Assembly (NCBI GenBank): GCA_945983355.1
Contig: CAMFSU010000048.1
Span: 20,367 to 84,366 of the forward strand
Length of the DNA stretch: 64,000 nt
From: an uncultured Clostridia bacterium
Lineage (GTDB): Bacteria; Bacillota; Clostridia; Oscillospirales; Acutalibacteraceae
Direction: 5' to 3'
Positions 42,273-61,890 of this stretch are shown piece after piece; positions within the stretch are counted from its first letter, which is position 1; each line of letters begins with the position of its first letter. Position numbers and translations under genes: made by a program. Below the pieces are notes generated by a model. That model ran no database searches. It was not told the origin of the DNA and was given only the letters and a program-made list of their open reading frames with translations.

Positions 42273-43310
42273 TTAGGCAGATAAAAGGCTATTTACGCAC
42301 GCCTCGTAGAGGTCTGCGGAGGTAAAATAGTTAAAAATCCCTCTTGGATAATTGTTTATCCACTTTTCAAGCCTGCGGGTGTCGGCGGGCGTTACCCGCT
42401 CAAAGCTAACGCCTTTCGGATAGTGGCGGCGTATCATTTTATTTTGATTTTCATTTGAGCCGCGCTCGTAGGAGCTGTACGGGTGGCAATAGTAAACCTT
42501 TGTACGGGTACCGACGCGGCGGCAGCTCTGCTCGAGTCCCTCATAATCGGAAAACTCGGAGCCGTTGTCTATGGTGATACTTTGAAAGATTTTATAAAAG
42601 TCTGCGCCGTATGCCCGCTCGATACCGTTAAGGGCTTTTACAACGCTCGCGGCGGTGTGGTCTTTCATAATACGGATAATCTCGTAGCGGGTGTAACGCT
42701 CGGTCAATACGAGCATAGTTTTTTTAGTGCCTTTTTTGCCCTCTACGCAGTCCATTTCCCAATGTCCGAAAGTGGTACGCTCCGCAATCTCTGCGGGGCG
42801 TTTCTCTATGCTCTCGCCTTTGGAGGCGCGAGCCGCTCTCACTTTCTTATATTTGCGGGTGCTCTTATTTCTCTTAACGGGTAAATTGTCGTTTGTGATA
42901 GTGAGGAAAACGCCCTGCTCGATATAGCGGTACAGAGTCGGAGCCGATATGCTCGTACTAAACTCTACGCCCTGGCGTTTGATTTCGCCCAGGACGGCGC
43001 GAGGAGAGTATTTCTCCACTCTTATTTTATACTCGATATACTGCGCGTACTCGTGGTCGGAGCCGATTTTAAGCGGCGCACCTTTAGCGCGGAGGTTAGC
43101 CTGGTTTTTCTCCTCGGCAATATCGGGGCTGTATCTCTGCTCGGTGGTATAATCGGAATTAAGGTGCTCATACTGTCCGCGCTTGAGCTCTCTATAAATA
43201 GTGCTGATATGTACGCCGAGCTTTTCAGCCATTACTCGAGGGGAGGTGCCTACCTTTTGCCAAGCCTCAATTTTTAATCTGTCGTTAAATGTTAAATGTT
43301 TGTATGTCAT
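42273..43310 (-). CDS. IS30 family transposase
   Basis: 345 aa from MTYKHLTFNDRLKIEAW (HTH). DDE core HWEMD...TIDNGSEF...ERGSNEN is typical of IS30. Confidence 0.9.
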   Translation of the reverse strand: MTYKHLTFNDRLKIEAWQKVGTSPRVMAEKLGVHISTIYRELKRGQYEHLNSDYTTEQRYSPDIAEEKNQANLRAKGAPLKIGSDHEYAQYIEYKIRVEKYSPRAVLGEIKRQGVEFSTSISAPTLYRYIEQGVFLTITNDNLPVKRNKSTRKYKKVRAARASKGESIEKRPAEIAERTTFGHWEMDCVEGKKGTKKTMLVLTERYTRYEIIRIMKDHTAASVVKALNGIERAYGADFYKIFQSITIDNGSEFSDYEGLEQSCRRVGTRTKVYYCHPYSSYERGSNENQNKMIRRHYPKGVSFERVTPADTRRLEKWINNYPRGIFNYFTSADLYEACVNSLLSA

Positions 43311-43389
43311 AATAAAATCACTCCGTTTTATATGATAGGATAAAAAATAGCCCGCTCCCAAATAGGAACGGGCTAAACTGTTGTAGGGT

Positions 43390-43785
43390 TTAACGGTCTG
43401 CTATATTAAGCTCGCGCTTGAGTGCCGCTTGTAACGCCTGCGAAAAGTTAATATTTGCTTTCTCTGCCTCGTAACAAAGCCAACTCGGGAGAGTGCAATT
43501 TTTCTTAACAACTTTCATTTCGTTTTTGCGGCGGTATTCTGCAAAGTCAACATCTACGAGGGAAATAATTTCACCCTCTGCGGGTTTTACATCTTTTGCA
43601 GAGCTTGCAGCGGGTATAGTCTTTCCGTCGTCCTCCATATCAATACCCATTAAGCCGATAGCGTCGCGTGCCATTTCTATAGCCTCGGTCAAGTCGTCGC
43701 CCTGGGTGTTGATATTAAAATCGGGTATAAATACAGTAAAGCCTTTTTCCTCGGGTGTTAAAATAATAGGGTATGAATTTTTCAT
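43390..43785 (-). CDS. hicB: type II antitoxin HicB
   Basis: 131 aa from MKNSYPIILTPEEKGFTVFIPDF (HicB N-domain) with a C-terminal RHH-like segment (LPSWLCYEAEKANINFSQALQAALKREL). RBS ggaggtt. Confidence 0.85.
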   Translation of the reverse strand: MKNSYPIILTPEEKGFTVFIPDFNINTQGDDLTEAIEMARDAIGLMGIDMEDDGKTIPAASSAKDVKPAEGEIISLVDVDFAEYRRKNEMKVVKKNCTLPSWLCYEAEKANINFSQALQAALKRELNIADR

Positions 43786-43847
43786 ACAATAACCTCCATA
43801 AATAAATGATATAATATATTCACAAGCAAGGGTGCAAGGGGCGGGGC

Positions 43848-44030
43848 TTATTTCAGCCCCCGCCTTTTGATTATTGCCCTTGCTAAATTCTCTTTGATTT
43901 CTCGGTGCCTCGGGATTGTTTCGGTTTCCGTTCCGTTGGTGTATATGTCGTGTCCGCCTCCGTTCCTCTTTAAGTACCAACCGTTTCTCTCGAGCAGTTT
44001 TATTAAGTCTGTCCGTTTCGTTTGTATCAC
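43848..44030 (-). CDS. hicA: type II toxin HicA (mRNA interferase)
   Basis: (V/M)IQTKRTDLIKLLERNGWYLKRNGGGHDIYTNG is the HicA signature. The only plausible start is a GTG that overlaps its own GGAGG, so the start is uncertain. Confidence 0.75.
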   Translation of the reverse strand: MIQTKRTDLIKLLERNGWYLKRNGGGHDIYTNGTETETIPRHREIKENLARAIIKRRGLK

Positions 44031-44834: not shown

Positions 44835-45365
44835 TTAGTCGTCCTCCTGGTCGGGGCTGTCGTCAACCTTGAGCCCCGCTTGTTCAAGCGTTTTACTAAT
44901 TTCTGCAAGATATTTTTCTTGTGCCGCTCGGATTTCGCCTATATTATTTTGTACCGTATTTCTTAATACATTTGTAGCCCGTGTGCCTGGGTGCTGAACG
45001 CTACGCCCGTACATAGTGTCATTATATGCGAGCATTTTTGCGTTTTTCGTGGTTATCGTATGCGGTTTAACTCCGTACTCTATCCAATGCGGGGAGGCGT
45101 GCGAGGGTACTTTCTTTTTCTTTTTTACCGTCTGCCAACTATAAAACCCTATTTCGAGCCGTATTTGCCCCGTTGATTTATCTATCCTTTTCCAGGTGCC
45201 TATATGGTTTTTTAACCTATTAGAGCGTATAGGTAAATTTTCTCGGAGGTGTTTTCTTATCACCTTTCCCGCTTCACCGAGAGCCGAGCGCGATAACCCT
45301 TTTATTGTGTCTTTAACCTCTTTGCTTGTGTTTATGAAAGTTACTGTACTTTTATTGCCTGCCAT
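44835..45365 (-). CDS. HK97 gp10-family phage protein (head-tail joining/tail completion type)
   Basis: 176 aa. ...PHWIEYGVKPH...VQHPGTRATNVLRNTV matches the gp10-family pattern (EyGT...hPG). Acidic tail. Confidence 0.65.
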   Translation of the reverse strand: MAGNKSTVTFINTSKEVKDTIKGLSRSALGEAGKVIRKHLRENLPIRSNRLKNHIGTWKRIDKSTGQIRLEIGFYSWQTVKKKKKVPSHASPHWIEYGVKPHTITTKNAKMLAYNDTMYGRSVQHPGTRATNVLRNTVQNNIGEIRAAQEKYLAEISKTLEQAGLKVDDSPDQEDD

Positions 45366-45453: not shown

Positions 45454-46446
45454 CTATTTAAGCAGCTCGTTTACGCGCTTTTGTACAGCGGAGTAGTCGT
45501 ACCCCGCTGCCGTGAGCTTTTGTTTACGAGTTGCGCCGTTGCCCCATTTGCCCGCGATAACCTCGCGCGCGATTTCGTCAACGGACTTTTTAGCGGGTGC
45601 CTCCGCAGCGACGGCGGTACCGCCTTTCGTTGTAATGTAGGTATCAAAGCCCGCTTTCTTGAGCTTGTCAGCCATAGCGTCGGCGTTAGCCTTGACGCTG
45701 TAGGCTCCTACTTGCACCTTGTAGAGGCTGCCGCTCTGCACGATATAGGTATCAAAGCCCGCTTTCTTGAGCTTTTCTGCAAGGGCGGTAGCGTTAGCTT
45801 TTTTGCTAAAAGCTCCCGTTTGTACTCTGTAGAGAGTCTTTGCAGGCTCGGCGGGTGTTGCGGGTTTTGTTTCCTCGTCGGGTTTCATAGCCGACGCAAC
45901 AGCCTTTCTAAAGCCGTCCATAGTGTAGCCCATTTTTAAGCCGTTCCACAAGTGCTCGGGGTCGCCGTGATTGGAGGCGATACCGCGGGCGTGTCCCTCT
46001 CGGTGGCTGATAATTACGCCGTCTGCGAGGGGGTCGAGGTTGTACTGTTTGCAAAGGAAAGCGAACAGCTCCACGGCTGCCTCGTAAGTACGCTTTACTA
46101 CAGCCTTTGCGGTAGCGGTATCGGAGCAAGTGAAATTTGAGCCGCTCGTATACTTGATACACGCAGGCTCGCACATCTCAACGCCGATATGCGTATTATT
46201 AGAGGCTCCGCCGCCGTGCCAGCCTCTATGGCTCCACGGCAAGCATTGATAAATAACGCCCGTATTTCCGTCGATAAAGGCGTGTACGCACGCTCTGTCG
46301 TATGTACTCTTATTCCAATTATTGACGAAAACGAGCGCGGACGGCTGCGGGCAGCCTACGCTATGGAGCATAAGCCCCTTTACGGCGATAGTTTTACCCG
46401 CTTTGTAGCAAGGGTTATTTGTTAAAATGGTTTCTTTAATCTGCAT
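45454..46446 (-). CDS. endolysin: N-acetylmuramoyl-L-alanine amidase (Amidase_2/PGRP) + two SPOR repeats + Cpl-7-like C-terminal repeat
   Basis: N-terminus has HSVGCPQ...HAFID...GWHGG...GVEMCEP. Two YRVQTGAFS/YKVQVGAYS...KLKKAGFDTYI repeats follow. C-terminus is GKWGNGATRKQKLTAAGYDYSAVQKRVNELL. Confidence 0.85.
   Translation of the reverse strand: MQIKETILTNNPCYKAGKTIAVKGLMLHSVGCPQPSALVFVNNWNKSTYDRACVHAFIDGNTGVIYQCLPWSHRGWHGGGASNNTHIGVEMCEPACIKYTSGSNFTCSDTATAKAVVKRTYEAAVELFAFLCKQYNLDPLADGVIISHREGHARGIASNHGDPEHLWNGLKMGYTMDGFRKAVASAMKPDEETKPATPAEPAKTLYRVQTGAFSKKANATALAEKLKKAGFDTYIVQSGSLYKVQVGAYSVKANADAMADKLKKAGFDTYITTKGGTAVAAEAPAKKSVDEIAREVIAGKWGNGATRKQKLTAAGYDYSAVQKRVNELLK
45638..45774 (-). 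repeat. 29-bp perfect direct repeat (two copies, 108 bp apart) within the SPOR-repeat coding region
   Basis: taggtatcaaagcccgctttcttgagctt occurs at 45638-45666 and 45746-45774, reflecting an internal domain duplication (KLKKAGFDTYI). Confidence 0.85.
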
Positions 46447-46448
46447 AC

Positions 46449-46712
46449 TTATTCCTCCGTATACTCAATGTCGTTTGCTTTCAGCTCCGCTAAATACTTG
46501 TCCGCCTGGATAGCCTCGGGAGTAAAGCTGTTATTTTTCCACCAAGCCCACAAAGTAGCCGCCACGGTAGCAGCCGCAGAGAGCCAGGCGTAGAGCTCCT
46601 CCTCCGCAAAGGGCAGGGGGTTTTTACCGCTCATTGTCAAAATGGTATTTACCAAAGTAACAAAAAGCACAATAGCTCTAATAATGGTTTCTGTAGGGAT
46701 TTTCTTACTCAT
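46449..46712 (-). CDS. phage holin (small two-TM protein, phiLC3-like)
   Basis: 87 aa from MSKKIPTETIIRAIVLFVTLVN, with a second hydrophobic helix and a charged C-terminus. Immediately upstream of the endolysin. Confidence 0.75.
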   Translation of the reverse strand: MSKKIPTETIIRAIVLFVTLVNTILTMSGKNPLPFAEEELYAWLSAAATVAATLWAWWKNNSFTPEAIQADKYLAELKANDIEYTEE

Positions 46713-47052
46713 TGCTCGCGCCTCCTTTCTTTGCTTTTTCTCTCGGCGAGTGCTCGGGGAGCTCCATTGTTTGCTCGTATAGTCCCGTAGCAACATCATT
46801 TCCGCCTAAAGTATGGTAACTATGATAAGCCCGCTTTAACGCCTCTTTAGCGTAAATAGGGCAATAGCCCCGCTCGTCCCATTTCTCATATTGTCCGATA
46901 ATCTCGGCTCGGAGGAGGCATTGCAAGCCCTCTCCGAGTGCGTCTTGTTTCTTTTTGCCGAGCTTAATACGCCCGATAACGACTCCTAAAGCTGATACAG
47001 CCCCGCCACACAAAAACGGTATGAGCCATTTAATAAAGGTTTCAAAATACAT
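46705..47052 (-). CDS. hypothetical phage membrane-anchored protein (lysis-cassette associated)
   Basis: 115 aa, one N-terminal TM, 8-nt overlap with the holin start. Confidence 0.55.
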   Translation of the reverse strand: MYFETFIKWLIPFLCGGAVSALGVVIGRIKLGKKKQDALGEGLQCLLRAEIIGQYEKWDERGYCPIYAKEALKRAYHSYHTLGGNDVATGLYEQTMELPEHSPREKAKKGGASNE

Positions 47053-47063
47053 AGCTTTTCTCC

Positions 47064-47246
47064 TTAATTACACTCGCTGTCGATTAGCTCAAGCTCGGCG
47101 GCTGCTGTGTCCCGCTTTTTCTGTAGCTCCTCGTCGGTGCTTAATGTTATATTTGCCTGCTCAAGAGCTAACGCCTGCTCCTTGATAATATCCGCCTGCA
47201 AGTGAGCAATAGCGCAGAGCCTCTCTACAAGCTCAAATAGGCTCAT
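47064..47246 (-). CDS. hypothetical small coiled-coil phage protein
   Basis: 60-aa ORF overlapping the upstream gene end. Confidence 0.45.
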   Translation of the reverse strand: MSLFELVERLCAIAHLQADIIKEQALALEQANITLSTDEELQKKRDTAAAELELIDSECN

Positions 47247-47613
47247 TGTCGGAGCCCTCCTCGCTGTCGGGAGGTGTCGGGAAAGTTACATTAAACGGAA
47301 AGCCCGCTTGTGTAGGCAAGTCCCTTAAAGCCTGGCGGTATACAGCCCAGGCTCCCGTAAAGATTTTCGAGAGCGAGGCAATAAATTTCGTAGCCGTTGA
47401 GGTGTCAAGCCCCAGGCGGTCAAGCGACATTTGCGCGTCGCTGTTATCAAGCAGCTTATTACGGATTTTGCGGACGAGTGCCGCCGCCTCCTCCTCGTTC
47501 TGCTCCTCACAAGCGGCAGCGTATGCCGCCTTTAAGGTTTCCTCGAGTTCTGCTTTTGTGGCTGCTGCCATTGCCTCAACCTGGGCGAGGCGTTTGTGGT
47601 AATTGTTTTTCAC
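47233..47613 (-). CDS. phage tail-fiber-assembly/chaperone-like protein
   Basis: GTG start with RBS ggaggg plus an 8-nt spacer. VRKIRNKLLDNSDAQMSLDR and WAVYRQALRDLP resemble Tfa-type chaperone motifs. Overlaps the RT 3' end by 38 nt. Confidence 0.5.
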   Translation of the reverse strand: MKNNYHKRLAQVEAMAAATKAELEETLKAAYAAACEEQNEEEAAALVRKIRNKLLDNSDAQMSLDRLGLDTSTATKFIASLSKIFTGAWAVYRQALRDLPTQAGFPFNVTFPTPPDSEEGSDNEPI

Positions 47614-48640
47614 GGTAAGAGCCCTCCAATTCTTTATAGAAATTTATCATTTTCCGCCGCTCGTGGTAGGTATCTCCTCGGGCAGCGTTTGCGAGCCAAG
47701 AAACGAGGGACTCGTGAGCCGTCCCTGGTGCATAGTCGCCGCTCTGCTCTTTAGCGTATAGCTTTTTGAGCTTGCGGCGTTGCTTGCCTTGTTTCTTTTT
47801 ACCCATTTTGCGTATAATCGCTCCCGAGTCGGTAACGATAAAACGCCATTGCAACATTTTTACGCCCTGTCGGAGAGGATAGAGAGTAGTTTTGCCGTTG
47901 AGCTCAAGCCCGATAGCGTTTACTTGCTTTTCTATCTCCGCGCGGCAATGCTGCAAAAATTCCTTGTCCTCGTGGATTAGTATAAAATCGTCCATATATC
48001 GTATATAGTGCTTGACTCGGAGCCGCTCTTTTATAAAGTGGTCGAGGTCGTCCAGGACGGCAAGAGCTACAAGCTGCGATACCTGGGAGCCGAGCCCTAT
48101 ACCAACATCACCGCCGAAAGAGTCTACAATGTCGCAGGCGTGCGCCGCTATTTGAGCGTCTTTAACCCGCTTACATATTGCAGCCTTTGCTATGTCGTGG
48201 CGTATGCTCGGGAAATAGTGGTGTATATCACACTTGAGCACCCACCCGTCGCAGCCGTGAGCTTTATAATAACGGCGTAAATGCGCCGTGATACGGTTTA
48301 GGGTATAATCGACTCCACGCCCGCGCAGGCAGGCGCAATTATCAGTTATAAACGATTTCGTTATCTGCTCATAAAGTCCGTTATCACATAGCGAGCGTTG
48401 AAATTGTCGGTCTTTTAACCTGGTCGCCACAATGTCGCGGCGTTTCGGCTCGTATATGGTAAAGTGTTGGTACCTATCTATTTTGTATTTGCCGCTCAAG
48501 AGGCTTTCTCGTAAGCGGTAAGTATTCTTTAGGGCGTTGCCCTCATAGCCTACGGTACTATCTTTCCAACGGATATTACGGCAGCTTTGTTTTAACCCCT
48601 TGTAGAGGTTGTCAAAAGATATTACTTGTTCGTATGACAT
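47576..48640 (-). CDS. DGR reverse transcriptase
   Basis: 354 aa from MSYEQVISFDNLYKGL. Contains EPKRRDIVATRLKDRQFQRSL, IGLGSQVSQ (DGR-type [IL]GxxxSQ) and YMDDFILIH (YxDD). Lies next to TR. The listed 425-aa ORF over-extends through TR. Confidence 0.9.
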   Translation of the reverse strand: MSYEQVISFDNLYKGLKQSCRNIRWKDSTVGYEGNALKNTYRLRESLLSGKYKIDRYQHFTIYEPKRRDIVATRLKDRQFQRSLCDNGLYEQITKSFITDNCACLRGRGVDYTLNRITAHLRRYYKAHGCDGWVLKCDIHHYFPSIRHDIAKAAICKRVKDAQIAAHACDIVDSFGGDVGIGLGSQVSQLVALAVLDDLDHFIKERLRVKHYIRYMDDFILIHEDKEFLQHCRAEIEKQVNAIGLELNGKTTLYPLRQGVKMLQWRFIVTDSGAIIRKMGKKKQGKQRRKLKKLYAKEQSGDYAPGTAHESLVSWLANAARGDTYHERRKMINFYKELEGSYREKQLPQTPRPG

Positions 48641-48787
48641 AATAAAGTAGGCGGACGCATATAAAAGGACTACCCCGTAAGGTACCTTTGTCGCCCGCAA
48701 TATTCCCTCCTTTCGGAGGTAGGACGGTCGCTCCTTGTGTGAGCTGCGCTGCTTTGGTCTATTGACTACTTGATACGGGCTATTCTC

Positions 48788-48916
48788 ACAATCGGGGGCG
48801 ACTCCGTTACCGTTAATCGCGTTGTTGTTGTTCAACGCTCCCGAGGTGTTCACATTGCGCTCGTTGTTCGCGTTCCCAGGGTTAGGGGAACGGAGCCAAC
48901 AGTTACGCGCCGAGCC
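48788..48916 (-). repeat. DGR template repeat (TR)
   Basis: 129 bp aligning with 49402-49530 at a constant offset of 614. Read in the VR frame it encodes GSARNCWLRSPNPGNANNERNVNTSGALNNNNAINGNGVAPDC, rich in AAC/AAT codons. Confidence 0.9.
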
Positions 48917-48934
48917 GAAAATATAGCAACCGCC

Positions 48935-49345
48935 CTACATATCTTTGTATTTTTCTTTGTCGGACTTTATCCAGGCTTTTAATAGGTCGTCTGTCTTGAG
49001 TATTAACCCCGTCCAAAACTCCGCTTTATCACCCGAAATATAGCCCGCGTCGTATGCGTCGTCGATAAGGTCTAATAGAGCGTCGAGGTGTGCGTGCGCC
49101 TTTACTTGTTCCATACGGCGGTAGCTGTATTCCTCGGCGTTGGTTACATATACCGAGTTAGCGTGCCGTATGCAAATACACGCCTCGCGTACCTCTGTAG
49201 CAATCGGCGAGGCATAAAGCCAACGGGTACTTTTTGGAAAGTGTTTCTCGTTTTTGAGTGCTGCTAATGAATACTTTTTAAGCTCTCGAGCTTTATTAAG
49301 CACTTGCAGCTTGCCCTCGCCTCTGTCGCCTTTTCTAACGCTCAT
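48935..49345 (-). CDS. avd: DGR accessory variability determinant (Avd-like helical bundle protein)
   Basis: 136 aa, helical and basic, located between VR and TR as in canonical DGRs. Carries an FPK...R...ANSVYV...R..Q pattern like four-helix-bundle Avd proteins. Confidence 0.7.
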   Translation of the reverse strand: MSVRKGDRGEGKLQVLNKARELKKYSLAALKNEKHFPKSTRWLYASPIATEVREACICIRHANSVYVTNAEEYSYRRMEQVKAHAHLDALLDLIDDAYDAGYISGDKAEFWTGLILKTDDLLKAWIKSDKEKYKDM

Positions 49346-49363
49346 ATTAAAACCTCCTTTTTA

Positions 49364-49381
49364 CCGCCTCTACCGAGGCGG
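49364..49381 (-). promoter_or_regulatory. hairpin with 4-nt GGTA loop downstream of VR (DGR target-recognition hairpin/cruciform candidate)
   Basis: Coding strand reads CCGCCTC-GGTA-GAGGCGG. It begins 8 nt after the target-gene stop and about 20 nt after the VR end. Confidence 0.65.
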
Positions 49382-49389
49382 ATTTTAGA

Positions 49390-51093
49390 TTATGCGATTA
49401 TACAAGCGGGGGCGACTCCGTAACCGCCAATCGCGCTGTAGCCGTACCACGCTCCCGAGGTGTACACATAGCGCTCGTAGCTCGCGTCCCCAGGGTTAGG
49501 GGAACGGAGCCAACAGTAACGCGCCGAGCCCGCCGCGTCATATTTGATACGCTCAATATTTGTAAAGCCCTCGTAATATTCCAACAGCTCGCCGTCTTTA
49601 ATAGCGGAGCTGTCCCAATCTCCGTAGATTTCGGGACGAGAGAGCATAAAAAACATATCGTTTAAGGTGTATACATTGTTTACGCTAAACTCGGTACCGT
49701 CGAGGCTGTTTACCTCAAATACGGAGTTAGTGCGGCAAGGAATAGCCGCAGGCTGTACCGCTGCCAAAAAGTCAGCGGGTAAACCTTTCATAAAGCCCGC
49801 TTTAGAGGTAGCCCAGGACGGGGCGCGGTCAAATTTGTTTGTAGGAGTCCACACGGAGCCCTCCGCTGCGTCGCTGTTGAGCCATTGACGAGCTGCGCTC
49901 TGTGCGTAGTTATTGGAGCCCCACATAATGCGTTGAGCACAATTAAGATTTTCGCTTGTGGCAGATGTCGCGGCAATGGTGCCGAGGCTTGTACCCTCCG
50001 AGCCCTCTGTAACAACAATACCGCTCTCAATAGCAGCAGTAGCCGCTACGGTAGCGTAAGTCGCAATCTTGCAGCCCGTAATTGCGGTAGAGCTCGAGTT
50101 AGTACCGAGCACAATTTGCCCGCCTGCGGGTACCGCTTTTGTCAATGTAAATTGATAGGTACCGTTTACCATACTTCCCGTAGCATAATTCCAGGTAAAA
50201 TTATAAGTGCCTGCGGGGATTTCCTCGGCTGCGTAGTAAAGTGCCTCGTATGCGTCAAATACGAGGGTTAAGTAGGTGCCCGCGCTGTTGCTGTATACAT
50301 ACTTTGCCTCGAGCGTCATACTGTGAGTGAGCTTACCGTTTGCCGCTGCGTGCTTGTCGTGGTCGCGTACAACCCAAGTAATAACCGCTCCCGTAGTAGC
50401 GTCCTCGGTTGTAAACTCGTAACCAACGGGAAATAGTTTTGCACCGAGCCCGAGGCGGACGGCGTTTTTAATATCCTCCCAGGTATTAACCGCTGTAAGC
50501 GTGTCAATATGTACGGTGGTTACAGTACCCTCTCTGTCGGTTACGCTGATAGTCGCGCCCGTTTCGGTCTGCACCGCTGAAATATTAACCTTTTCCGCGC
50601 CCTCGGCTGCGCCGTTGGCGTTGTCTGCTGCCTCGTTTGCAATTTCCGATGCAATGGTAGCCGCTCTCTCTGCTACGGTATTAACCTCCGCAAGAGCAGC
50701 GGTAAGAGCGTTAAACTCGTCGGAGCTTGCGGGTGCGTCTTTATCGAAAGCCGCCCGCTCCACATCAATATAGAAAATTTGTGAGCTCAAGAGAGCCTCG
50801 CCCTTATAAAGTCCGATTTCGGCAACCGCCACGCCTGCGGCTGCGAGTGCCTGCGGTGTCAGTTCGACAACGATAACGCCGTTTTCTACGGTTGCGTCAT
50901 TGAGTACGGTATGCCCGTCAGCTTTGGTAAGCTGCAAGCGGGGCGTTACGCCGTCCTCGATAGCGTAAGCCTGCCCGCAATTAAGCGGGGTAATTTCAAG
51001 AAAACGGGTTTTTGTGTCGTTCTGCTTTGCAAATACCGTAATAGGGTGCGTATCTCTGCCAAAATCGAGAGAAAGTTTTTGCCTAATTTCCAT
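49390..51093 (-). CDS. DGR target protein: BppU-like N-terminal baseplate/fiber domain + C-terminal C-type-lectin-fold variable region
   Basis: 567 aa. The N-terminus MEIRQKLSLDFGRDTHPITVFAKQNDTKTRFL is BppU_N-like. The C-terminus ARYCWLRSPNPGDASYERYVYTSGAWYGYSAIGGYGVAPACIIA is the VR. Confidence 0.88.
   Translation of the reverse strand: MEIRQKLSLDFGRDTHPITVFAKQNDTKTRFLEITPLNCGQAYAIEDGVTPRLQLTKADGHTVLNDATVENGVIVVELTPQALAAAGVAVAEIGLYKGEALLSSQIFYIDVERAAFDKDAPASSDEFNALTAALAEVNTVAERAATIASEIANEAADNANGAAEGAEKVNISAVQTETGATISVTDREGTVTTVHIDTLTAVNTWEDIKNAVRLGLGAKLFPVGYEFTTEDATTGAVITWVVRDHDKHAAANGKLTHSMTLEAKYVYSNSAGTYLTLVFDAYEALYYAAEEIPAGTYNFTWNYATGSMVNGTYQFTLTKAVPAGGQIVLGTNSSSTAITGCKIATYATVAATAAIESGIVVTEGSEGTSLGTIAATSATSENLNCAQRIMWGSNNYAQSAARQWLNSDAAEGSVWTPTNKFDRAPSWATSKAGFMKGLPADFLAAVQPAAIPCRTNSVFEVNSLDGTEFSVNNVYTLNDMFFMLSRPEIYGDWDSSAIKDGELLEYYEGFTNIERIKYDAAGSARYCWLRSPNPGDASYERYVYTSGAWYGYSAIGGYGVAPACIIA
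49402..49530 (-). repeat. DGR variable repeat (VR)
   Basis: 113 of 129 positions are identical to TR. 15 of the 16 differences are at TR adenines on the coding strand, and one is T to G. Confidence 0.9.
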
Positions 51094-51105: not shown

Positions 51106-53082
51106 TTATACTGTGGTTAATGTAACGCTTTTCCAAGCGTACCATTTATTATCGTATCGGGTGCGAACATATACGGCGGAGTTATCGTAGGCGGTGTACC
51201 GCTGCATAATATATCCGCTCGGGTTAGCCATAACCTCCAAAAAGCCCGCAATAGCTTTCGGGTAGTGCTTGTCGGTGCTTGCGTTAGCGTTTAACGCCTG
51301 GGTGTATATGCCGCCCGCCACGAGGTTATTTAAGTCCTCTGTACCGTCGAGAGCCGCCACGAGTCCGAGCACATTAAAACCGTTCATCATAACCGAGCCG
51401 TCAACATCTAAAGCCGCCGCAGGCTCGCGCTTGTTTATACCCACCTTTTTACGGCGGAGCGCAAGTAGCGGCGTGCCCTGCGGTACCGTTATTGTAACGG
51501 TGTCCGAGGTCAGCTTGTCGGTAACGAGGAATTGCACATAATAGGAGTAGTCGGCGTCCAGGCTTAACCACTCGTCGGACTTAAAATTAAAGCCGCTGTC
51601 GTCGTATTCTGTGTAGCTCGTAATATCCGTATAGCTGCCGTATGAGCTGTCGCTCGTCTTTCGGTATCGGTAATACAAATAGCGGAGGCTGTTTTTGTTT
51701 ACGCCGCCAATGGTTACGGGCGTAATGTCGCCGCCGATTGTTACCTGGGTTGTGTCCTCAACCTCATTTACACGGCGCATAGTGTACTCGGTAATATTGA
51801 TACCCTCATACTCGAGGACGGTAATATTAACCGTTACCGCTGTCGTGTAGCCTCGAGAGTCGATAGCCGTAACGATAACGGGGACGGTGCCTTTATCGGG
51901 TAAGGTGCCTACCGTTATTGTGGTAGTTGTACCCGAGGCGGTTTTAGAGCCCGCCACAACAGAATAGCTCGAAATGGTCGCGCCGTTCTTTGCTGTAGCT
52001 GCTGTCAAAGTCAGCTTTAGCGTTGAGATATTCTGTATTAAAATTTGGTTGTTACCCGTAACGCCTACGGCTGTTGCGTTGGAGTCCTCAAAGGTAAACG
52101 CCGTAAAGGTCGGCGCAGAGTTCGCGGAGGTCGTCTGCACCGTCGCCGTTTTCTCCGAGGCGGTACCTATTTGCGTTGTGCCGCTATAGGTAGTCAGCGT
52201 AAAGGTACCCGTAAAGCTCTTTAGAGCCGACATAGCCGCAAGCACCGTAGAGCGTTGCGCTGCGGTAAGCGTTATAGTGTTCGAGCCGTTGGATAAGCTC
52301 AAGCCCGTTATAGTTAAAATGGTTGTAGAGCCGTTTTTAATAACGAGCGTGTGCGTGTAGCTCGTGTTGTATACCGTTACCGACATTGTTATTTTTGCCG
52401 TAGCTGCGTCGGCGGTAAAGGCACTCACGGAGTATATAACCGAGCCGCCAAGCGTTTTTACGGAGGTTTTACTCGAGTAGCCGTCTACATCATTTGTCTT
52501 TTTTCTCGCGCATACTTGTATGCTGTACGAGGTGTTAGGCGTAAGCCCCGTTATTGTGTATTCTTTAGAGGTGCCGTCCGTAGAGTTAAACTCCACCCAA
52601 GAGGAGCCGCCGTTTGTTGAATACCACCAACGATTAGCGGTAGTCGAGGCTGTAACCGTAATTTTTACGCTTGAGGCTGTTATATTAGAGGTTGCAAGAG
52701 TAACCGTAGGAGCTGTGCGGTCAATATTTGTAAGAGTCATACTGCCGCCGTACTCTTGCTCGGTGGAGTAGTATACTCTCGTCGAAAATCCTACCGTAAT
52801 ACTCTTTTTGCCGTCCGAGCCGTGAGCAACGGTAATAGTGCCGCTCGTTGAGCCTTTAGCTGCGGGAAATACTTTTGAGTCCCAAGAGGTCGCGCCTTTG
52901 CTATAAACGACGGTACCGTTAATTGTTACGGTAGTCGGGGCGGTGGAGTAGTAGTTTACCGAGCCGCCCAAGCATTGCAGCGTCCAGGTAAGCGTAGAGG
53001 TGTTAGCCTTTACATTTACAGACTCGGTAATAGTGAGCTGTAAGTATCTGCCCTCATAAGAATTACTCTTAAATGTTGCCAT
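51106..53082 (-). CDS. phage tail fiber/receptor-binding protein (DUF859-like N-domain, FN3-like repeats, pyocin-knob-like C-terminus)
   Basis: 658 aa. MATFKSNSYEGRYLQLTITES...TLTWTL is DUF859-like. WWYSTNGGSSWVEF...YTITGLTPNTSY is FN3-like. C-terminus is GIYTQ...GFLEVMANPSGYIMQRYTAYDNSAVYVRTRYDNKWYAWKSV. Confidence 0.7.
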   Translation of the reverse strand: MATFKSNSYEGRYLQLTITESVNVKANTSTLTWTLQCLGGSVNYYSTAPTTVTINGTVVYSKGATSWDSKVFPAAKGSTSGTITVAHGSDGKKSITVGFSTRVYYSTEQEYGGSMTLTNIDRTAPTVTLATSNITASSVKITVTASTTANRWWYSTNGGSSWVEFNSTDGTSKEYTITGLTPNTSYSIQVCARKKTNDVDGYSSKTSVKTLGGSVIYSVSAFTADAATAKITMSVTVYNTSYTHTLVIKNGSTTILTITGLSLSNGSNTITLTAAQRSTVLAAMSALKSFTGTFTLTTYSGTTQIGTASEKTATVQTTSANSAPTFTAFTFEDSNATAVGVTGNNQILIQNISTLKLTLTAATAKNGATISSYSVVAGSKTASGTTTTITVGTLPDKGTVPVIVTAIDSRGYTTAVTVNITVLEYEGINITEYTMRRVNEVEDTTQVTIGGDITPVTIGGVNKNSLRYLYYRYRKTSDSSYGSYTDITSYTEYDDSGFNFKSDEWLSLDADYSYYVQFLVTDKLTSDTVTITVPQGTPLLALRRKKVGINKREPAAALDVDGSVMMNGFNVLGLVAALDGTEDLNNLVAGGIYTQALNANASTDKHYPKAIAGFLEVMANPSGYIMQRYTAYDNSAVYVRTRYDNKWYAWKSVTLTTV

Positions 53083-53094
53083 AGTGTCGCCTCC

Positions 53095-55437
53095 TTAATC
53101 GAGCAGTACAATATCAAGCCCCGCGCTCTGCGGTACAAACTTGCCTTTGCCTACTGTCAGCTCGTCCGTTACCTCGGTTTTGCGTAAAGTAGTAAGGTCT
53201 TTGTTTACGGTAAGGACTACCGCTCCCGCGTGCTTAACTGCAAATTGCGTATGGTCTATAATGGTTTCTGTGGAGCTCTCGGAGTTCGTAATATTAATGC
53301 CTCGGCGGTCTATCTTTACATTTTCGGTATAGATTTCGTTAGGTGCTGGAGTCCAATTTTGCTTTTGGCTGCCCTCCGCTAACATAAAGTCCGCCACATA
53401 CAAATAATAGCCCGTAGTACCCGCTGTAAGTGTTACGGTGTTACCCGCTGCCGTAAAGGTTAAAGAATACTCCGCCCAGGTGTTATTTATTGCCTGCTCA
53501 TCAAAAATAAAGGTATCATTACCGCCGTTATTGATAAGCACATAGCAGCGGTTAGCGGTGCCTCTTTTTGCCTTAAAGGTCAGCGTATACTCTTTGCCCT
53601 GCAAAACGGTTATTTCTTGCGATAGGGTACCGACGCGCAAGCGAAACATAGAGCCCGAGGCGGTATTGTTTACCGCGTCTGCCGTCTGCTGCGCTACAAC
53701 CGAGCCCGTATAGCTCCAATCGTCCGAAACGCCATTTAAGCCGCTCGAGTTTTTAATATTGTTTATACCGCCCGTTGTTTTGGTGGTATAAGAGAGCGTC
53801 AAGCTGTCTATTTTCTGCTCGAGGCTTGATATGGTCGTTTCGAGTGTTTCTACATCACCGTAAAAAACGGTTTCAATTCCTTTAATAACGCTCAATAGGT
53901 GCTCGTCGGCTGCGATAAATGCCTGCTCGACGCTCGAGGTAGCTACGCCTATTTCGTTTGTAACCGCCGTTTTGTACTCTTGAGAGATAGAGGAGGCTTG
54001 CACCGAGTCCGCCTGCAAGAGGGCACCGTTAAGAATACCCGCGTTAATAAAGTCGGCGACTATTGCGCCGTCCATTGTCATAGCGAGCGCGTACTCGCCA
54101 TTGTAGCCCGTAGAGGAGTAACCCAAGCCGCCGCTATTCCACCGCCACACATTAACAGCCTCCTCGATGGTAGGCGCGTCAAGTATGAGGATTTCTTGCG
54201 GCTTTTCCGCAGGGTTGAGGACGACATAGCCGCCCGAGTGTCCCGTAATAAGGCTCGTAGCGTTTGCTATTGCCTTTTTGAGCTGCTCTGTAGCTGCTGC
54301 CTGCCCTTTTTGTACAGAGGTCTTAATTTCCTCTATAGCTGCCTGCTGCTTGTTTACGGTGTCCGCAAACGAGCTTTTAGCGTCGCCGAGTTCGACGCTA
54401 TCGTATTTCTCCTCGAGGGTGTTATAGGTTGTCTTTATAACCTTTGCGCGAGCTGTTACGCCGAGCTTTGAAAATCGGACGGCTACGGTATCGCACATCA
54501 TAACCCGCTCAAGAGGTGCTATGTTTTTATATTCCTCGGTCTGCCATAGCTGAATAAAAGAAACGGTAATATTAACCTTTGGCACGCCGAGCTCCGCTGC
54601 CGCAGCGTATGCGGTAGCTTTGGCTCGTAAAGCCTCCTCGGTAATTGCCTCTCCCTCTCCGAAACGGTCTGTAAAATCCATAATATAGGCTTTACTGTGT
54701 CCGATATTTTCGGCGTTGTTAAGAGGCAGCACCTTTTCCGAGAGGTAAATATATACCTCTATTTTCTCGTCGCCCTCTCCGTCCTGGGAGTAGCGAGCAT
54801 ACGGCATAAGGTGCGTATAGCAATCGGCTATATTTGCCTCTTGCTTGAGGTCTTTTAAGTTTTTACCGTACTCGATACTTACGCCTCTATCGGAGCCGCG
54901 GTGCTTATGGAGCTTGACTACGAAATTATCAAACTCAAACTCGCCGCCCCACACATCAAGCACCGAGCCCGCCTGCCCGCCCAGGATAGCGCGGACGGAG
55001 CAAGGCGTTAAAATGGTCGAGCTGTTGAGGGTAGAAATATCGCTTATAGCAGTAAACGCGGACGGCAAGCCCGCGTCCTGGATAGCTCGAGTAATAGCCG
55101 CTTGCGGCGTTACATTTTTAACAGAAAAACCGAGAGTCGGTATGCCGTTAAGGTCGTAGCTGATATGCTCCGCTGAATATGTAACAATACCTTTAAGAGG
55201 CTTGCTCGATTTGTAAATACGGAATAGCTGCGGCTCGCTCGTGTCGTTGGCTTTCGCCTTGATAATGCAGCCCTCCGTAATTTGGTCGTACCATTGTCCC
55301 GTAATAGGGTACTGTAAAGAGCACTCATAGGAGCCGTTACGCTCCTCGGTTACGGTACACTTTGTAGCGTCTTTTAGAAAACCGATACCGTTATGCGTAA
55401 AGGTGCTCTCGTTTTTTGTGTATAAAATTGGTATCAT
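53095..55437 (-). CDS. tail-associated protein Tal (prophage tail endopeptidase family) with C-terminal carbohydrate-binding-like module
   Basis: MIPILYTKNESTFTHNGIGFL is the typical N-terminus of phage minor structural/Tal proteins. 780 aa. ATGA overlap with Dit. Confidence 0.8.
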   Translation of the reverse strand: MIPILYTKNESTFTHNGIGFLKDATKCTVTEERNGSYECSLQYPITGQWYDQITEGCIIKAKANDTSEPQLFRIYKSSKPLKGIVTYSAEHISYDLNGIPTLGFSVKNVTPQAAITRAIQDAGLPSAFTAISDISTLNSSTILTPCSVRAILGGQAGSVLDVWGGEFEFDNFVVKLHKHRGSDRGVSIEYGKNLKDLKQEANIADCYTHLMPYARYSQDGEGDEKIEVYIYLSEKVLPLNNAENIGHSKAYIMDFTDRFGEGEAITEEALRAKATAYAAAAELGVPKVNITVSFIQLWQTEEYKNIAPLERVMMCDTVAVRFSKLGVTARAKVIKTTYNTLEEKYDSVELGDAKSSFADTVNKQQAAIEEIKTSVQKGQAAATEQLKKAIANATSLITGHSGGYVVLNPAEKPQEILILDAPTIEEAVNVWRWNSGGLGYSSTGYNGEYALAMTMDGAIVADFINAGILNGALLQADSVQASSISQEYKTAVTNEIGVATSSVEQAFIAADEHLLSVIKGIETVFYGDVETLETTISSLEQKIDSLTLSYTTKTTGGINNIKNSSGLNGVSDDWSYTGSVVAQQTADAVNNTASGSMFRLRVGTLSQEITVLQGKEYTLTFKAKRGTANRCYVLINNGGNDTFIFDEQAINNTWAEYSLTFTAAGNTVTLTAGTTGYYLYVADFMLAEGSQKQNWTPAPNEIYTENVKIDRRGINITNSESSTETIIDHTQFAVKHAGAVVLTVNKDLTTLRKTEVTDELTVGKGKFVPQSAGLDIVLLD

Positions 55438-56156
55438 AAGCAGCACCACCTCGGGACGATTTCAAGCTGCGTAACATCACCAACCCAGGAAATAGCATTG
55501 CTGCCAGGTAGCAGCGTAGGGAAAGCCGCTCCCGACATTTTGTTATTTTGGGGCTGTATGCCCTTATAAGCGTTCATAATGTCGGAGTCTACCTCGATAT
55601 ACTCGTCAATATCCGTAAAGGTAAACGAGTCATTGTTTACGGTTAAAGTAACCGTCCCGCTGCCCGTGATTTTGATATACGGCGCGGACGGGTAAAACTC
55701 TGCATTGTAGAGGGTGCCTGCTGCCGTGAATACGACGGGCTGTTGTCCCTCGAAAGAATACTTAAACGGCTTACAGTTAAAAGAGAGCTTTACCTCGCCG
55801 AGGTCGCGGAGCTCTTGCTCTATGTCTACCTCGTCGGAGTAGGAGCCCAGGCGAAAATACTTTTTATCGTAGCTATCCCACAAACGGAAATAGCCCTGCT
55901 CCGCCAGGAGCCAACCTTTAATTTGGTGTGTAAGCTCGACAAATTCCCGCTCGGTATTGTTGAGCAATACGCAGTTATACGGGATTTTGATATTTTTATA
56001 GCGTCCGTTGTCTGTGATAAGGTCGCCGCTGCGCCCTGGGACGCTTGTATAGCTAATATCCCGAGAGGCTCCCTTGTAGGAGCCTTTCTCGGAAATAAGC
56101 AACCCAAACTCGAGGGAGCTATGGTCTTTGAACATAAAAAACGGTAATTTTTCCAT
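55434..56156 (-). CDS. distal tail protein Dit (siphovirus tail component)
   Basis: 240 aa between TMP and Tal, FGLLISEKGSYKGASRDISYTSVPGRSGDL pattern. Confidence 0.75.
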   Translation of the reverse strand: MEKLPFFMFKDHSSLEFGLLISEKGSYKGASRDISYTSVPGRSGDLITDNGRYKNIKIPYNCVLLNNTEREFVELTHQIKGWLLAEQGYFRLWDSYDKKYFRLGSYSDEVDIEQELRDLGEVKLSFNCKPFKYSFEGQQPVVFTAAGTLYNAEFYPSAPYIKITGSGTVTLTVNNDSFTFTDIDEYIEVDSDIMNAYKGIQPQNNKMSGAAFPTLLPGSNAISWVGDVTQLEIVPRWCCL

Positions 56157-59132: not shown

Positions 59133-59711
59133 TTACCCTGCGGCTGCGGCTGCCGCTGCCTGCGCGGGTGCCTGGGTGATTTCCTCCACTTTCCACAAGG
59201 TGCCGTCGAGGTCGGTATGCGCGTAATGAGCCAAAAACTCAAAGGCGAGTTCGCCCTCGGCTTTCTGTACCGCTTTAGCAGTAAAGCCCGTTTCGTGCAT
59301 AGGGTTGAAAATGGTAATTTTCTTATATTTGCCGCTGATGAGCTTTGCAAACATAGTAATATTTTTGAGGTATGCGCTATCGGGAATAATGCCCGTTTTG
59401 GGATTTGTGATAGCGTTACCCTCCGCGTCGCTTACGGTGCAACCAGGAATAGCGCGGGCGAGGTTTTCCTGGCTCATACAAAGAGTAGTAACCTTAATAG
59501 AGGCTCCCTGCTCCTCGATAACCTGGGTACCCGCTGTCTTGCCGTGTCTGCCGTCAAATTCAATATCGCGGACGGTTACAGTAGCGGCAAACTCGCCGCC
59601 GCCACGAGTAGGAGCCAGGAAACGCTCGGTAGTTTCTCCATAGTCGAGGAAAATAACCGACTCGTCAATCTGGATACTCTCGATTTGCTGTTTGGTAAGA
59701 TTAGTAACCAT
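59133..59711 (-). CDS. major tail protein
   Basis: 192 aa in the canonical position. RGGGEFAATVTVRDIEFDG pattern of phi13/TP901-type major tail proteins. Poly-Ala C-terminus. Confidence 0.8.
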   Translation of the reverse strand: MVTNLTKQQIESIQIDESVIFLDYGETTERFLAPTRGGGEFAATVTVRDIEFDGRHGKTAGTQVIEEQGASIKVTTLCMSQENLARAIPGCTVSDAEGNAITNPKTGIIPDSAYLKNITMFAKLISGKYKKITIFNPMHETGFTAKAVQKAEGELAFEFLAHYAHTDLDGTLWKVEEITQAPAQAAAAAAAG

Positions 59712-60753: not shown

Positions 60754-61890
60754 TTAGGCTGTAGCCTTAATAAACTTAACGAAAGCCTCGGTAGCCTGCA
60801 CCTTGCCGTCGAACATAGCGCAGCCCAGGAAGTCGTAGGCGTTTTCGCGGGTTACAAACTGCGAGGTAACATTGATTTCCTCGGGCATATTGCCGATATA
60901 ACCACGATAGATATTGCAGAGGTAGCCCTCGTGTACGGTAATTCTATCGTCAAAGCTAACGGGATAACCCATTACGCGGTATACGCCGTTTTCGTGAGTA
61001 ACAATATTATCCTTGCTGTTATTCATAAGGGGGTGAAAATCAGCAAAGAAAGTAGTTTTACTCATAATCCACTCTGCGCCGTTGTCGTAGCCGCCGTTGA
61101 GCAATCCCACGAGGGTTTTAACATCAGCAGCAGCAAGAGAGGCAGCCTTTGCAACAGTAACAGAGTTAGCAGCCGTCCAGGTGATTTTGTCAAAACCCTG
61201 CGCCTCGCCGCTACCGCTACCGTATACGATAAGCTGGTTGATTTTCTCCGCAATCTTGCGGGCAATCTTATTTACGAGCCAATTCTCGAAAGCGTCAATA
61301 GACATTTTCTCGACAGACTTTGAAATAGTTACGAGCTTTGTAACCTCGTAGCCTGTCAATGCAACCTCTACGAGAGTATCTGCGTCGGCAGTAATGGCTA
61401 CGCCCTCCTTGTGAGTCTTTGCGTCGGTAGTTGTACCCTCTGCAGGTACCTTTACGCCGCCAGGCACACGGAGCAAGTCGATTTTATCGAGTAGCGGGCA
61501 ATACTGCTTAACTTTCTCGATAATCTTGTTTTGAGTGATAGTAGGCACCGCAGAGCCTACAGAGCCCGCAGCAGTAGTAAGGGCTCTTGTTTCAGTTTCG
61601 GAGAGCTCAAGCCCTCTAACACTGCGGAGCCAAGCTGTGCGGTATTCCTTTTCGCTGTCGCTTGCAACATCTGCACGAGCTGCAACGGGGTTAGGAATTT
61701 CGGTAGCAGGGATAGTACCCATATTGATACCGTCGATAGTAGCCTTTCTCTTTTCGAGTTCCTTAAACTCGGTATCGAGCTCGCGCAACTCCTTTTCGAT
61801 TTCGTCGAGGTTTACCTCGTCTGTGCCCTGGAGCATTGCGCGGAGTTCCGCCTTACGGTCGTTAATTTCTTTCATACGCTTAATAAACAT
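60754..61890 (-). CDS. major capsid protein, HK97 family (with N-terminal delta/scaffold-like coiled coil)
   Basis: 378 aa. N-terminal coiled coil (ELRAMLQ...EKELRELDTEFKELEKRK), then the HK97 fold region. Follows the prohead protease. Confidence 0.88.
   Translation of the reverse strand: MFIKRMKEINDRKAELRAMLQGTDEVNLDEIEKELRELDTEFKELEKRKATIDGINMGTIPATEIPNPVAARADVASDSEKEYRTAWLRSVRGLELSETETRALTTAAGSVGSAVPTITQNKIIEKVKQYCPLLDKIDLLRVPGGVKVPAEGTTTDAKTHKEGVAITADADTLVEVALTGYEVTKLVTISKSVEKMSIDAFENWLVNKIARKIAEKINQLIVYGSGSGEAQGFDKITWTAANSVTVAKAASLAAADVKTLVGLLNGGYDNGAEWIMSKTTFFADFHPLMNNSKDNIVTHENGVYRVMGYPVSFDDRITVHEGYLCNIYRGYIGNMPEEINVTSQFVTRENAYDFLGCAMFDGKVQATEAFVKFIKATA

Follow-up and report, generated by a model that had tools for sequence, protein, structure and literature searches.

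To our knowledge, diversity-generating retroelements (DGRs) are the only natural systems of targeted protein hypermutation known in prokaryotes, and those carried by gut prophages shape the host range of phages. The reference system for the present analysis is the mtd-avd-TR-brt element of Bordetella phage BPP-1. In BPP-1, directionality is set by a (GC)14 element and a 21-bp initiation of mutagenic homing (IMH) element with fixed mismatches between the template repeat (TR) and the variable repeat (VR) (PMC3240598). The spacer RNA (Sp) of that phage makes two long-range pairings, one between Sp 47-56 and TR 117-129, which ends in the priming adenosine A56, and one between Sp 59-70 and the 3' end of avd, known as the 'cPRT Stop' (bioRxiv 10.1101/2023.10.23.563531). 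DGRs of gut Bacillota have been described in the Faecalibacterium prophages Lelie, Roos, Pioen and CP11 (PMC11792537) and in the gut phages nd4 and nd12 (PMC10743442), and DUF6273 is known as a C-type-lectin-like DGR target domain with the VR at its C-terminal end (PMC10743442, PMC11792537). Here we analyze a 64,000-nucleotide stretch of DNA (the window, hereafter) from an uncultured gut Clostridia bacterium (assembly GCA_945983355.1, contig CAMFSU010000048.1), in which a prophage almost certainly carries a complete DGR in the canonical order target(VR)-avd-TR-spacer-reverse transcriptase (RT), which would recode the tip of a putative receptor-binding protein.

An initial annotation of the window, made from the sequence and a list of its open reading frames (ORFs), had proposed a complete DGR with its parts in canonical order on the minus strand, and the ORFs do lie at the coordinates it had given (Table 1). 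Judged by its sequence, the element is of a well-known kind: the order target-avd-TR-RT is common, and all of the DGR features that a sequence can reveal are present.

The repeat pair and its adenine bias

The TR and VR align in MAFFT over 129 columns with no gaps and 16 mismatches, and a direct-repeat search returned the same pair as the largest direct repeat of the region, with a spacing of 614 and with homology that ends abruptly on both sides. Fifteen of the 16 mismatches fall on TR adenines (hypergeometric P = 5.2e-10, given 32 adenines in 129 nt), all 16 affect the first or second position of a codon in the target frame, and asparagine codons of the TR become codons for Tyr, Asp, Ser or Gly in the VR. 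The substitutions of the window VR are located between 49421 and 49518, and diversification was observed over repeat positions 4-110. The initial annotation had given the same coordinates, length, offset and number of mismatches, its translations of the two repeats are identical to the recomputed strings, including the replacement of Asn codons, and the exact pairwise alignment that it had proposed as a check confirms that the mismatches are adenine-biased. Its statement that 15 mismatches lie at TR adenines is correct as a count, but not all 15 can be attributed to mutagenesis. The A-to-C difference at repeat position 125 (TR 48792 / VR 49406) is the same in 16 of 16 related loci, which identifies it as a fixed TR/VR difference of the IMH/IMH* type and not as a product of mutagenesis, thus leaving 14 mismatches attributable to adenine mutagenesis.

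From one genome per species, 80 loci encoding relatives were collected, and the first 40 were examined for TR/VR pairs. These yielded 28 pairs in 27 loci in which at least 75% of the mismatches are adenine-biased. A close set of 16 loci, with RT identities of 80-100%, contains 16 distinct VRs versus 8 TRs; in this set TR-adenine sites are substituted in the cognate VR in 222 of 516 cases (43%), as opposed to 13 of 1548 (0.8%) for non-adenine sites. The signature of adenine-specific mutagenic retrohoming that had been read from the window recurs in the close set. Within an 11-locus subset, pairwise divergence of the VRs amounts to 58% at adenine positions and 15% elsewhere, and that of the TRs to 10% at adenine positions and 14% elsewhere. 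Furthermore, non-adenine changes that a lineage has acquired in its TR reappear in its cognate VR, as with GAGT at positions 72-75 in one locus (L001), which argues for repeated copying from TR to VR.

The exact RT protein of the window was found on 8 public contigs from different samples. When the window and four contigs with an identical RT are compared, their VRs differ at 9-18 of the 32 adenine positions and at 1-6 of the 97 others, their TRs differ at 0-3 of 129 positions, and 2-13 differences fall in the 485 nt that separate VR from TR. As the VRs differ even though the RT is identical, homing has been recent relative to RT divergence. The initial annotation had suggested mapping population reads to see whether variation is confined to adenine-templated VR positions. 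Approximated with contigs from different samples, a cross-sample proxy rather than reads of this genome, the comparison shows a VR that is hypervariable at adenine-templated sites only and a TR that is nearly invariant.

No second or remote VR-like copy of the TR was found in the 64-kb window, the best third match agreeing at 44 of 97 non-adenine positions. Two-target versions do exist in the wider RT clade. Locus L018, from the Kiritimatiellae metagenome-assembled genome (MAG) JAFYDR010000069, has an RT of 52% identity and two VRs (1964-2073 and 3212-3321) for one TR; all 14 mismatches of the first VR and 17 of the 18 of the second are at adenine sites.

The repeat closes with the GC-rich block GTCGCCCCCG, and a computationally detected stem-loop begins 20 nt past the end of TR/VR homology. 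Hairpins of phage DGRs follow a published rule: they lie 4-34 bp from the VR and consist of a GC-rich stem of 7-10 bp capped by a 5'GRNA loop of 4 nt (PMC3240598). The hairpin at 49364-49381 agrees with this rule in stem, loop and distance. It is unchanged in the 16 close loci, and by analogy with BPP-1 it may take part in retrohoming. Together with the structured DGR RNA described below, it adds to the parts that the initial annotation had listed.

Reverse transcriptase, accessory protein and structured RNA

The longest ORF for the RT opens at GTG 48853, inside the TR; ATG 48640, where the initial annotation had begun the gene, is also the start called in five related contigs and gives 354 aa. 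The product carries the motifs LGSQVSQ (48074-48094) and YMDD (47987-47998), both of which had been pointed out from the sequence. Its best match in the PDB is 8ub7_A (E 2.2e-22, 83 bits, query residues 4-324), described in Foldseek as the RT of the DGR ribonucleoprotein of Bordetella phage (BPP-1 bRT), whereas RTs of other classes (8bgj, group II maturases, the 'retron-type' 5hhj, Cas6-RT-Cas1 and Drt3a) score 3e-7 or worse. The two motifs align to IGSLTSQ and YMDD of bRT, keeping the DGR signature [I/L/V]GxxxSQ. Residues D138, D217/D218 and L183/G184/Q189 align to bRT D138, D215/D216 and I181/G182/Q187, and F60, R68 and I70 align to F66, R74 and I76; the bRT residues are catalytic or contact the template or dNTP in a cryo-EM study (bioRxiv 10.1101/2023.10.23.563531). 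The fingertip residues are likewise conserved. By these sequence comparisons the protein is affiliated with DGR RTs, as had been proposed, and not with those of retrons or group II introns. In tblastn searches of GenBank phages, the nearest RTs were those of uncultured human faecal phages (53%) and of nd12 (43%), followed by Faecalibacterium phages FP_Brigit, FP_Toutatis and Lelie at about 37%; nd4 and Bordetella phages were also matched, and all of the named phages are DGR carriers. None of the deposited phage genomes in that search exceeded 53% RT identity, and blastn of the 4-kb cassette against GenBank phages returned one weak match over 11% of the query and no close deposited phage.

These results bear on the possibility that the repeats are an ordinary duplication or gene-conversion tract, biased by chance or composition, beside an unrelated RT of the retron, group II intron or Abi/DRT kind. 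NCBIfam returned no DGR-RT family for the protein, and its best models were a group II intron RT (E 1.2e-19), Drt3a and retron models, although all of these scored far below their cutoffs. In contrast, no other PDB entry comes near bRT as a match to the protein, which has the DGR signature motif, and the surroundings include an Avd-type gene, the hairpin, the IMH-like end and the canonical gene order. An unrelated RT would also leave unexplained the adenine bias of the window (P = 5.2e-10), its recurrence in the 28 TR/VR pairs of 27 related loci, and the 43% versus 0.8% substitution rates of the close set. No intron-type RNA or retron msr/msd match was found in Rfam, and no RNA family at all was found at the DGR when 44-52 kb was searched at E <= 1 and the whole window at the gathering score. 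We consider this explanation effectively refuted, with a probability close to nil.

The identity of the gene between target and TR is less evident from its sequence. The NCBIfam model DivGenRetAVD (NF033474) matches across its full profile at E 3.8e-4, with 20.7 bits versus a cutoff of 80. Pfam returned no match for the window protein, and Pfam bAvd (PF22296) weakly matches 11 of 21 homologs (E 8e-5 or weaker). Searches of PDB sequences with phmmer and with a 21-sequence profile retrieved no Avd, only YopO and SO2669 at chance level, and a comparison of folds was therefore needed. The AlphaFold2 model, built with 21 homologs, is a four-helix bundle with a predicted local distance difference test (pLDDT) score of 87.5. 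In Foldseek it matches 2rld and 2gsc with template modeling (TM) scores of 0.67-0.74 when normalized by the query and 0.82-0.89 when normalized by the target, the Avd chain of the DGR ribonucleoprotein (8ub7_C) with 0.61 and 0.73, and bAvd (4dwl_D) with 0.50 and 0.61. 2rld and 2gsc are members of the S23/23S-IVS four-helix family, to which Avd also belongs. By its fold and position, the product models as an Avd-type four-helix bundle, in keeping with the initial call of an Avd-like gene.

The 147-nt spacer is highly conserved in an alignment of 11 loci that reaches about 50% RT identity. RNAalifold predicts 28 pairs from this alignment, 17 of them with compensatory changes. In the consensus, 93% of cells are paired, versus 80% in column shuffles and 35-54% in slid controls, and none of 500 shuffles reached the observed value in any of five measures. 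Upstream, the 14-nt strand GTAGGGCGGTTGCT, which overlaps the avd stop codon, is complementary to the spacer strand at 48719-48732 in 14 of 14 pairs. As MAFFT was unable to align the upstream strand in divergent loci, complementarity was scored there by an anchored scan, in which 10 of 12 loci have 13-14 of 14 pairs and the other two have 11 (L017) and 9 (L019). The duplex occurs in five unrelated sequence versions, all of which are still complementary. From the layout in BPP-1, it is predicted to be the equivalent of the avd:Sp 'cPRT Stop', and because the arrangement of the duplexes parallels that of BPP-1, cDNA synthesis would be self-primed from the spacer adenosine at Sp nt 56 (48732). 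A further RNAalifold helix (helix 1), joining the GC-rich end of the TR to GGAGCG of the spacer, overlaps the better-supported avd:Sp duplex and is treated here as an alternative, uncertain pairing.

Not all TR adenines are substituted equally. Adenines of AAY codons are substituted in 12-75% of cases. Two TR adenines, 48839 and 48803 (repeat positions 78 and 114), are synonymous third positions of GGA codons in a GGAG context, and they are substituted in 0 of 10 and 0 of 11 cognate VRs (L001-L013, L081-L085). Over 61 TR/VR pairs of related loci, adenines in AA runs are substituted in 50% of cases, isolated ones in 25% and those in a GAG context in 10%. Selection on the protein cannot explain the behavior of synonymous sites, and an effect of sequence context on mutagenesis is therefore possible; isolated adenines in GAG/GGAG contexts may be spared for mechanistic rather than selective reasons.

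The RNA elements and the spared adenines raise two broader proposals: that a BPP-1-like RNA control architecture has been kept in register in a Bacillota lineage, and that isolated adenines in GAG/GGAG contexts are spared mechanistically. The architecture would comprise the TR:Sp duplex, the avd:Sp 'cPRT Stop' duplex and the conserved adenosine at Sp nt 56, held in an almost nucleotide-for-nucleotide register with only distant RT similarity. Both proposals are speculative, and we judge them rather improbable. If the one on architecture were true, the lineage would be a natural, covariation-rich Gram-positive model of the self-priming mechanism, and if the one on adenines were true, it would provide a sequence-context rule for DGR adenine mutagenesis.

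The target, its diversification and the prophage

The target begins with a BppU_N domain and ends with a DUF6273 domain, at whose extreme C-terminal end the VR is placed. In BFVD, an AlphaFold2 model of the C-terminal 228 aa (pLDDT 84) matched DUF6273 proteins of viruses, with E-values as low as 1.4e-13. The initial annotation had called the target a phage receptor-binding protein, and the BppU_N domain, the DUF6273 domain with its VR and the position after Dit, Tal and DUF859 all support that view; by analogy with BPP-1 the target is a putative receptor-binding protein.

Two further observations concern the target. In the PDB, its C-terminal domain (49393-50076) matches a single structure, 9qa6, in the N-terminal part of the IgA protease from Thomasclavelia ramosa (Foldseek E 1e-7, profile E 2.6e-7), with which it has WLNS and WLR(S/T)P motifs in common; this suggests that a bacterial IgA protease carries a lectin-like module of the DUF6273 type. 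The proteins in databases that are homologous to the C-terminal domain mostly measure 300-400 aa and have no precomputed BppU_N match. The other observation is that the central region of the target (49870-50700; nt 887-1720 in L081, L082 and L084) is about 79% identical or unalignable among contigs with an identical RT, in which the flanks of the gene are 92-97% identical and the target is 584 aa long versus 567 aa in the window. The middle of the gene appears to have been exchanged by recombination independently of the DGR.

A real DGR could also diversify an accessory adhesin for mucus, glycans or environmental ligands, comparable to Hoc-like or tentaclin targets, in place of a host-receptor binder. 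For some DUF6273 proteins, the tentaclins, ligands other than the host have been proposed (PMC10743442), the IgA protease region is the one solved structure that was matched, and primary receptor binding could fall to the large neighboring DUF859 and Tal-CBM proteins. However, BppU_N, found here with E 3.2e-11, is the module by which the baseplate upper proteins of lactococcal phages are attached to the baseplate. The gene also occupies the place where a siphovirus usually has its receptor-binding protein, following Dit, Tal and DUF859 directly and preceding a tail-assembly-chaperone-like gene. An accessory adhesin is considered rather improbable.

With a receptor-binding protein as the target, the element would work as follows. 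The 3' end of avd, the TR and the spacer would be transcribed as a single structured RNA, which an RT-Avd complex would bind and from which it would copy the TR into cDNA, misincorporating opposite template adenines. The cDNA would then take the place of the VR, in a direction set by the IMH-like end, which is GC-rich and has one fixed mismatch between TR and VR, and by the hairpin downstream. In this way about 13 Asn codons (AAY) would be recoded. They would lie on the ligand-binding face of the C-type-lectin-like DUF6273 domain, at the tip of a baseplate protein anchored by BppU_N, and the recoded tip would change receptor specificity. The DGR is real and probably functional, and its current activity in this strain is suggested by the analogy with BPP-1.

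Several points weigh against this account. One assembly provides one VR for this genome. The sequence matches of the Avd-type protein are under the family cutoffs, and neither Mtd nor TvpA was retrieved from the PDB when the C-terminal domain of the target was searched with Foldseek and with a profile, for which reason its C-type-lectin fold is taken from the literature on DUF6273. The lone non-adenine mismatch of the window, T to G at repeat position 83 (TR 48834 / VR 49448), changes Leu to Trp and is found in this window only among the 16 loci, so at least one change is not due to adenine mutagenesis. Rare non-adenine differences also occur in the relatives (the 13 of 1548 sites given above); they may be either point mutations after homing or rare RT errors at non-adenine template bases. 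Finally, Faecalibacterium prophage DGRs with the same class of target showed no clear activity on induction (PMC11792537), indicating that an intact DGR can be silent.

The last two points lead to the main rival, which overlaps with the preferred explanation rather than competing with it: the DGR may be intact but currently silent or decaying, with the VR diversity between strains reflecting past activity of the phage lineage. The T-to-G change at 49448 lies outside the mechanism, and a temporary-inactivation hypothesis has been put forward for the induced prophage DGRs of the DUF6273 class (PMC11792537). Nevertheless, the ORFs of the window are full length with intact catalytic residues, and a similarly low rate of non-adenine mismatches is seen in many relatives. 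The TR, IMH-like end, hairpin and RNA duplexes are likewise intact, relatives with other VRs have them in identical form, and contigs with a 100% identical RT all have different VRs. We regard silence as unlikely, while giving it real weight, and continue to favor a functional DGR.

The prophage is of the siphovirus type, and the DGR cassette lies within its tail/baseplate module, at the site expected for a receptor-binding protein gene. Positions 1-42 kb of the window hold host genes, and the prophage continues past the right end of the window. In a scan of one genome per species, the closest genomes were gut-derived Acutalibacteraceae, Clostridia and Oscillospiraceae MAGs, and the host is a gut Clostridia bacterium resembling Acutalibacteraceae/Oscillospiraceae. 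Directly 3' of the RT lies the Phage_tail_APC gene, which overlaps the RT end by 38 nt if a GTG start is used. The same gene is next after the RT in L081-L085, and one relative (P0021, 482 aa) combines RVT_1 and PF16778 in a single product. We treat this gene as a neighbor that forms the context of the cassette and do not claim it as part of the DGR; the cassette appears to have been inserted between the receptor-binding protein gene and the putative chaperone gene.

At or just beyond the lysis-module end of the prophage are a transposase-like gene (42273-43361, minus strand; phrog_4646, E 8.5e-136) and a gene with a HicB-like antitoxin domain (43390-43980, minus strand; phrog_497). On this side of the prophage no integrase was seen; its other end is beyond the window. 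A 176-aa ORF (44835-45365, minus strand) weakly matches tail-completion/Neck1 proteins (phrog_5, E 1.7e-8) and is oddly located, after the endolysin and outside the structural module. The host part contains a lysine riboswitch (RF00168, 21220-21389, plus strand; 84 bits, E 1.5e-20) upstream of the ORF at 21487-22374. A sigma-70 promoter scan gave fewer matches than in shuffled sequence and was not used.

Table 1. Positions of the DGR parts, their RNA and DNA elements and the surrounding prophage genes in the window
Feature	Position	Strand	Details
DGR cassette	47576-51093	minus	target, avd, TR, spacer, RT
DGR target gene	49390-51093	minus	567 aa; putative baseplate-anchored receptor-binding protein
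BppU_N domain	50680-51078	minus	residues 6-138; Pfam PF10651, E 3.2e-11, 43.6 bits vs cutoff 23.1
DUF6273 domain	49396-49920	minus	residues 392-566; Pfam E 1e-15
Variable repeat (VR)	49402-49530	minus	43 full codons, 3' end of target gene
IMH-like 3' end of VR	49402-49419	minus	GGAGTCGCCCCCGCTTGT; GC-rich core common to TR, one fixed difference (C 49406 vs A 48792 in TR)
Hairpin/cruciform	49364-49381	minus	CCGCCTC-GGTA-GAGGCGG; 7-bp GC-rich stem, 4-nt GRNA-type loop GGTA
avd-type accessory gene	48935-49345	minus	136 aa, pI 8.8
Upstream duplex strand	48925-48938	minus	GTAGGGCGGTTGCT; 14 nt, overlaps avd stop codon
Template repeat (TR)	48788-48916	minus	129 nt, 32 adenines, mostly in AAC/AAT codons of the VR frame
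Spacer (Sp)	48641-48787	minus	147 nt, TR to RT start; structured DGR RNA
CTCACA, Sp nt 45-50	48738-48743	minus	pairs with TGTGAG at the TR 3' boundary (48785-48790)
CAAGGA, Sp nt 51-56	48732-48737	minus	conserved
Spacer strand of long-range duplex, Sp nt 56-69	48719-48732	minus	
GAAA-loop hairpin in spacer	48706-48719	minus	
Covarying 3' stem-loop in spacer	48651-48698	minus	
DGR reverse transcriptase	47576-48640	minus	354 aa; Pfam RVT_1
Portal	62535-63869	minus	
Head maturation protease	61927-62532	minus	
Major head protein	60754-61890	minus	
Major tail protein	59133-59711	minus	
Tape measure protein	56156-58345	minus	
Dit	55434-56156	minus	
Tal	53095-55449	minus	
DUF859 protein	51106-53082	minus	
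Phage_tail_APC chaperone-like gene	47233-47613	minus	Pfam PF16778, E 7.6e-14
Holin-like ORFs	46449-47052	minus	
Amidase/SPOR/CW_7 endolysin	45454-46446	minus	

Comparison with described systems

The class of target domain and the host group are both already in the literature, close copies of the element occur in many public MAGs and metagenomes, and the element adds nothing new in kind and will not surprise a specialist. A literature search found no publication describing this prophage DGR lineage and none on a BppU_N-DUF6273 target specifically. What the locus offers is a clean, fully parsed DGR from a prophage lineage of uncultured Acutalibacteraceae/Oscillospiraceae, whose VR exists in many natural variants and whose RNA is supported by covariation. 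As such, it makes up a comparative dataset for RNA elements recently defined structurally in BPP-1, one that could be used toward engineering DGRs for Gram-positive hosts and for annotating BppU_N-DUF6273 proteins as variable receptor-binding proteins.

The BPP-1 DGR has the same order of target with 3' VR, avd, TR, spacer and RT. Its repeats are of similar length (134 nt vs 129 nt here), adenine-specific differences are concentrated in AAY codons in both, and in both the GC-rich IMH or IMH-like end carries at least one fixed mismatch between TR and VR, and the VR is followed by a GC-rich hairpin whose 4-nt loop is of the GRNA type. Their spacers measure about 140-147 nt and form the TR:Sp and avd:Sp duplexes in near-equal register: here Sp 45-56 pairs with the 3' boundary of the TR and Sp 56-69 with the 3' end of avd, versus Sp 47-56 and Sp 59-70 in BPP-1. 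The RT of BPP-1 is the best PDB match of the RT described here, although the similarity is only moderate (83 bits). Unlike in BPP-1, the Avd of the window cannot be detected by a plain sequence search of the PDB, the target is a BppU_N-DUF6273 protein and not Mtd, the host is a Gram-positive gut Clostridia bacterium with a siphovirus-type phage, and the IMH-like region has one fixed mismatch within the repeat, as opposed to five in the 21-bp element of BPP-1.

The Faecalibacterium prophages and the nd phages are alike in carrying DGRs in gut Bacillota phages or prophages, and their targets are DUF6273 proteins with the VR at the C-terminal end of the domain. They also include the nearest named RT relatives (nd12, then Lelie, FP_Brigit and FP_Toutatis), yet no deposited phage record exceeds 43-53% in RT identity. 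Lelie, CP11, nd4 and nd12 each have two VRs or targets versus one in the 64-kb window, and the targets of this group have gp105-like or Ig/Fn3 (tentaclin) architectures in place of the BppU_N anchor seen here.

Much closer are the prophage DGRs of Oscillospiraceae/Acutalibacteraceae MAGs (for instance, JAZUAU010000005, FR884134 from Oscillibacter sp. CAG:241, and CP091724 from Anaerotruncus sp.), with RT identities of 80-99%, the same cassette order, hairpin and RNA elements, and a nearly identical TR. Each of them differs in having its own VR, and the central region of the target is mosaic.

For the anchor of the target, the closest described counterpart is BppU of Lactococcus phage TP901-1. 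The N-terminal 133 aa of the target match BppU_N, and the gene likewise comes soon after Dit and Tal. In TP901-1, BppU holds a separate receptor-binding protein, BppL, whereas the target described here unites, in one protein, the BppU_N anchor and a lectin-like tip that is diversified by the DGR.

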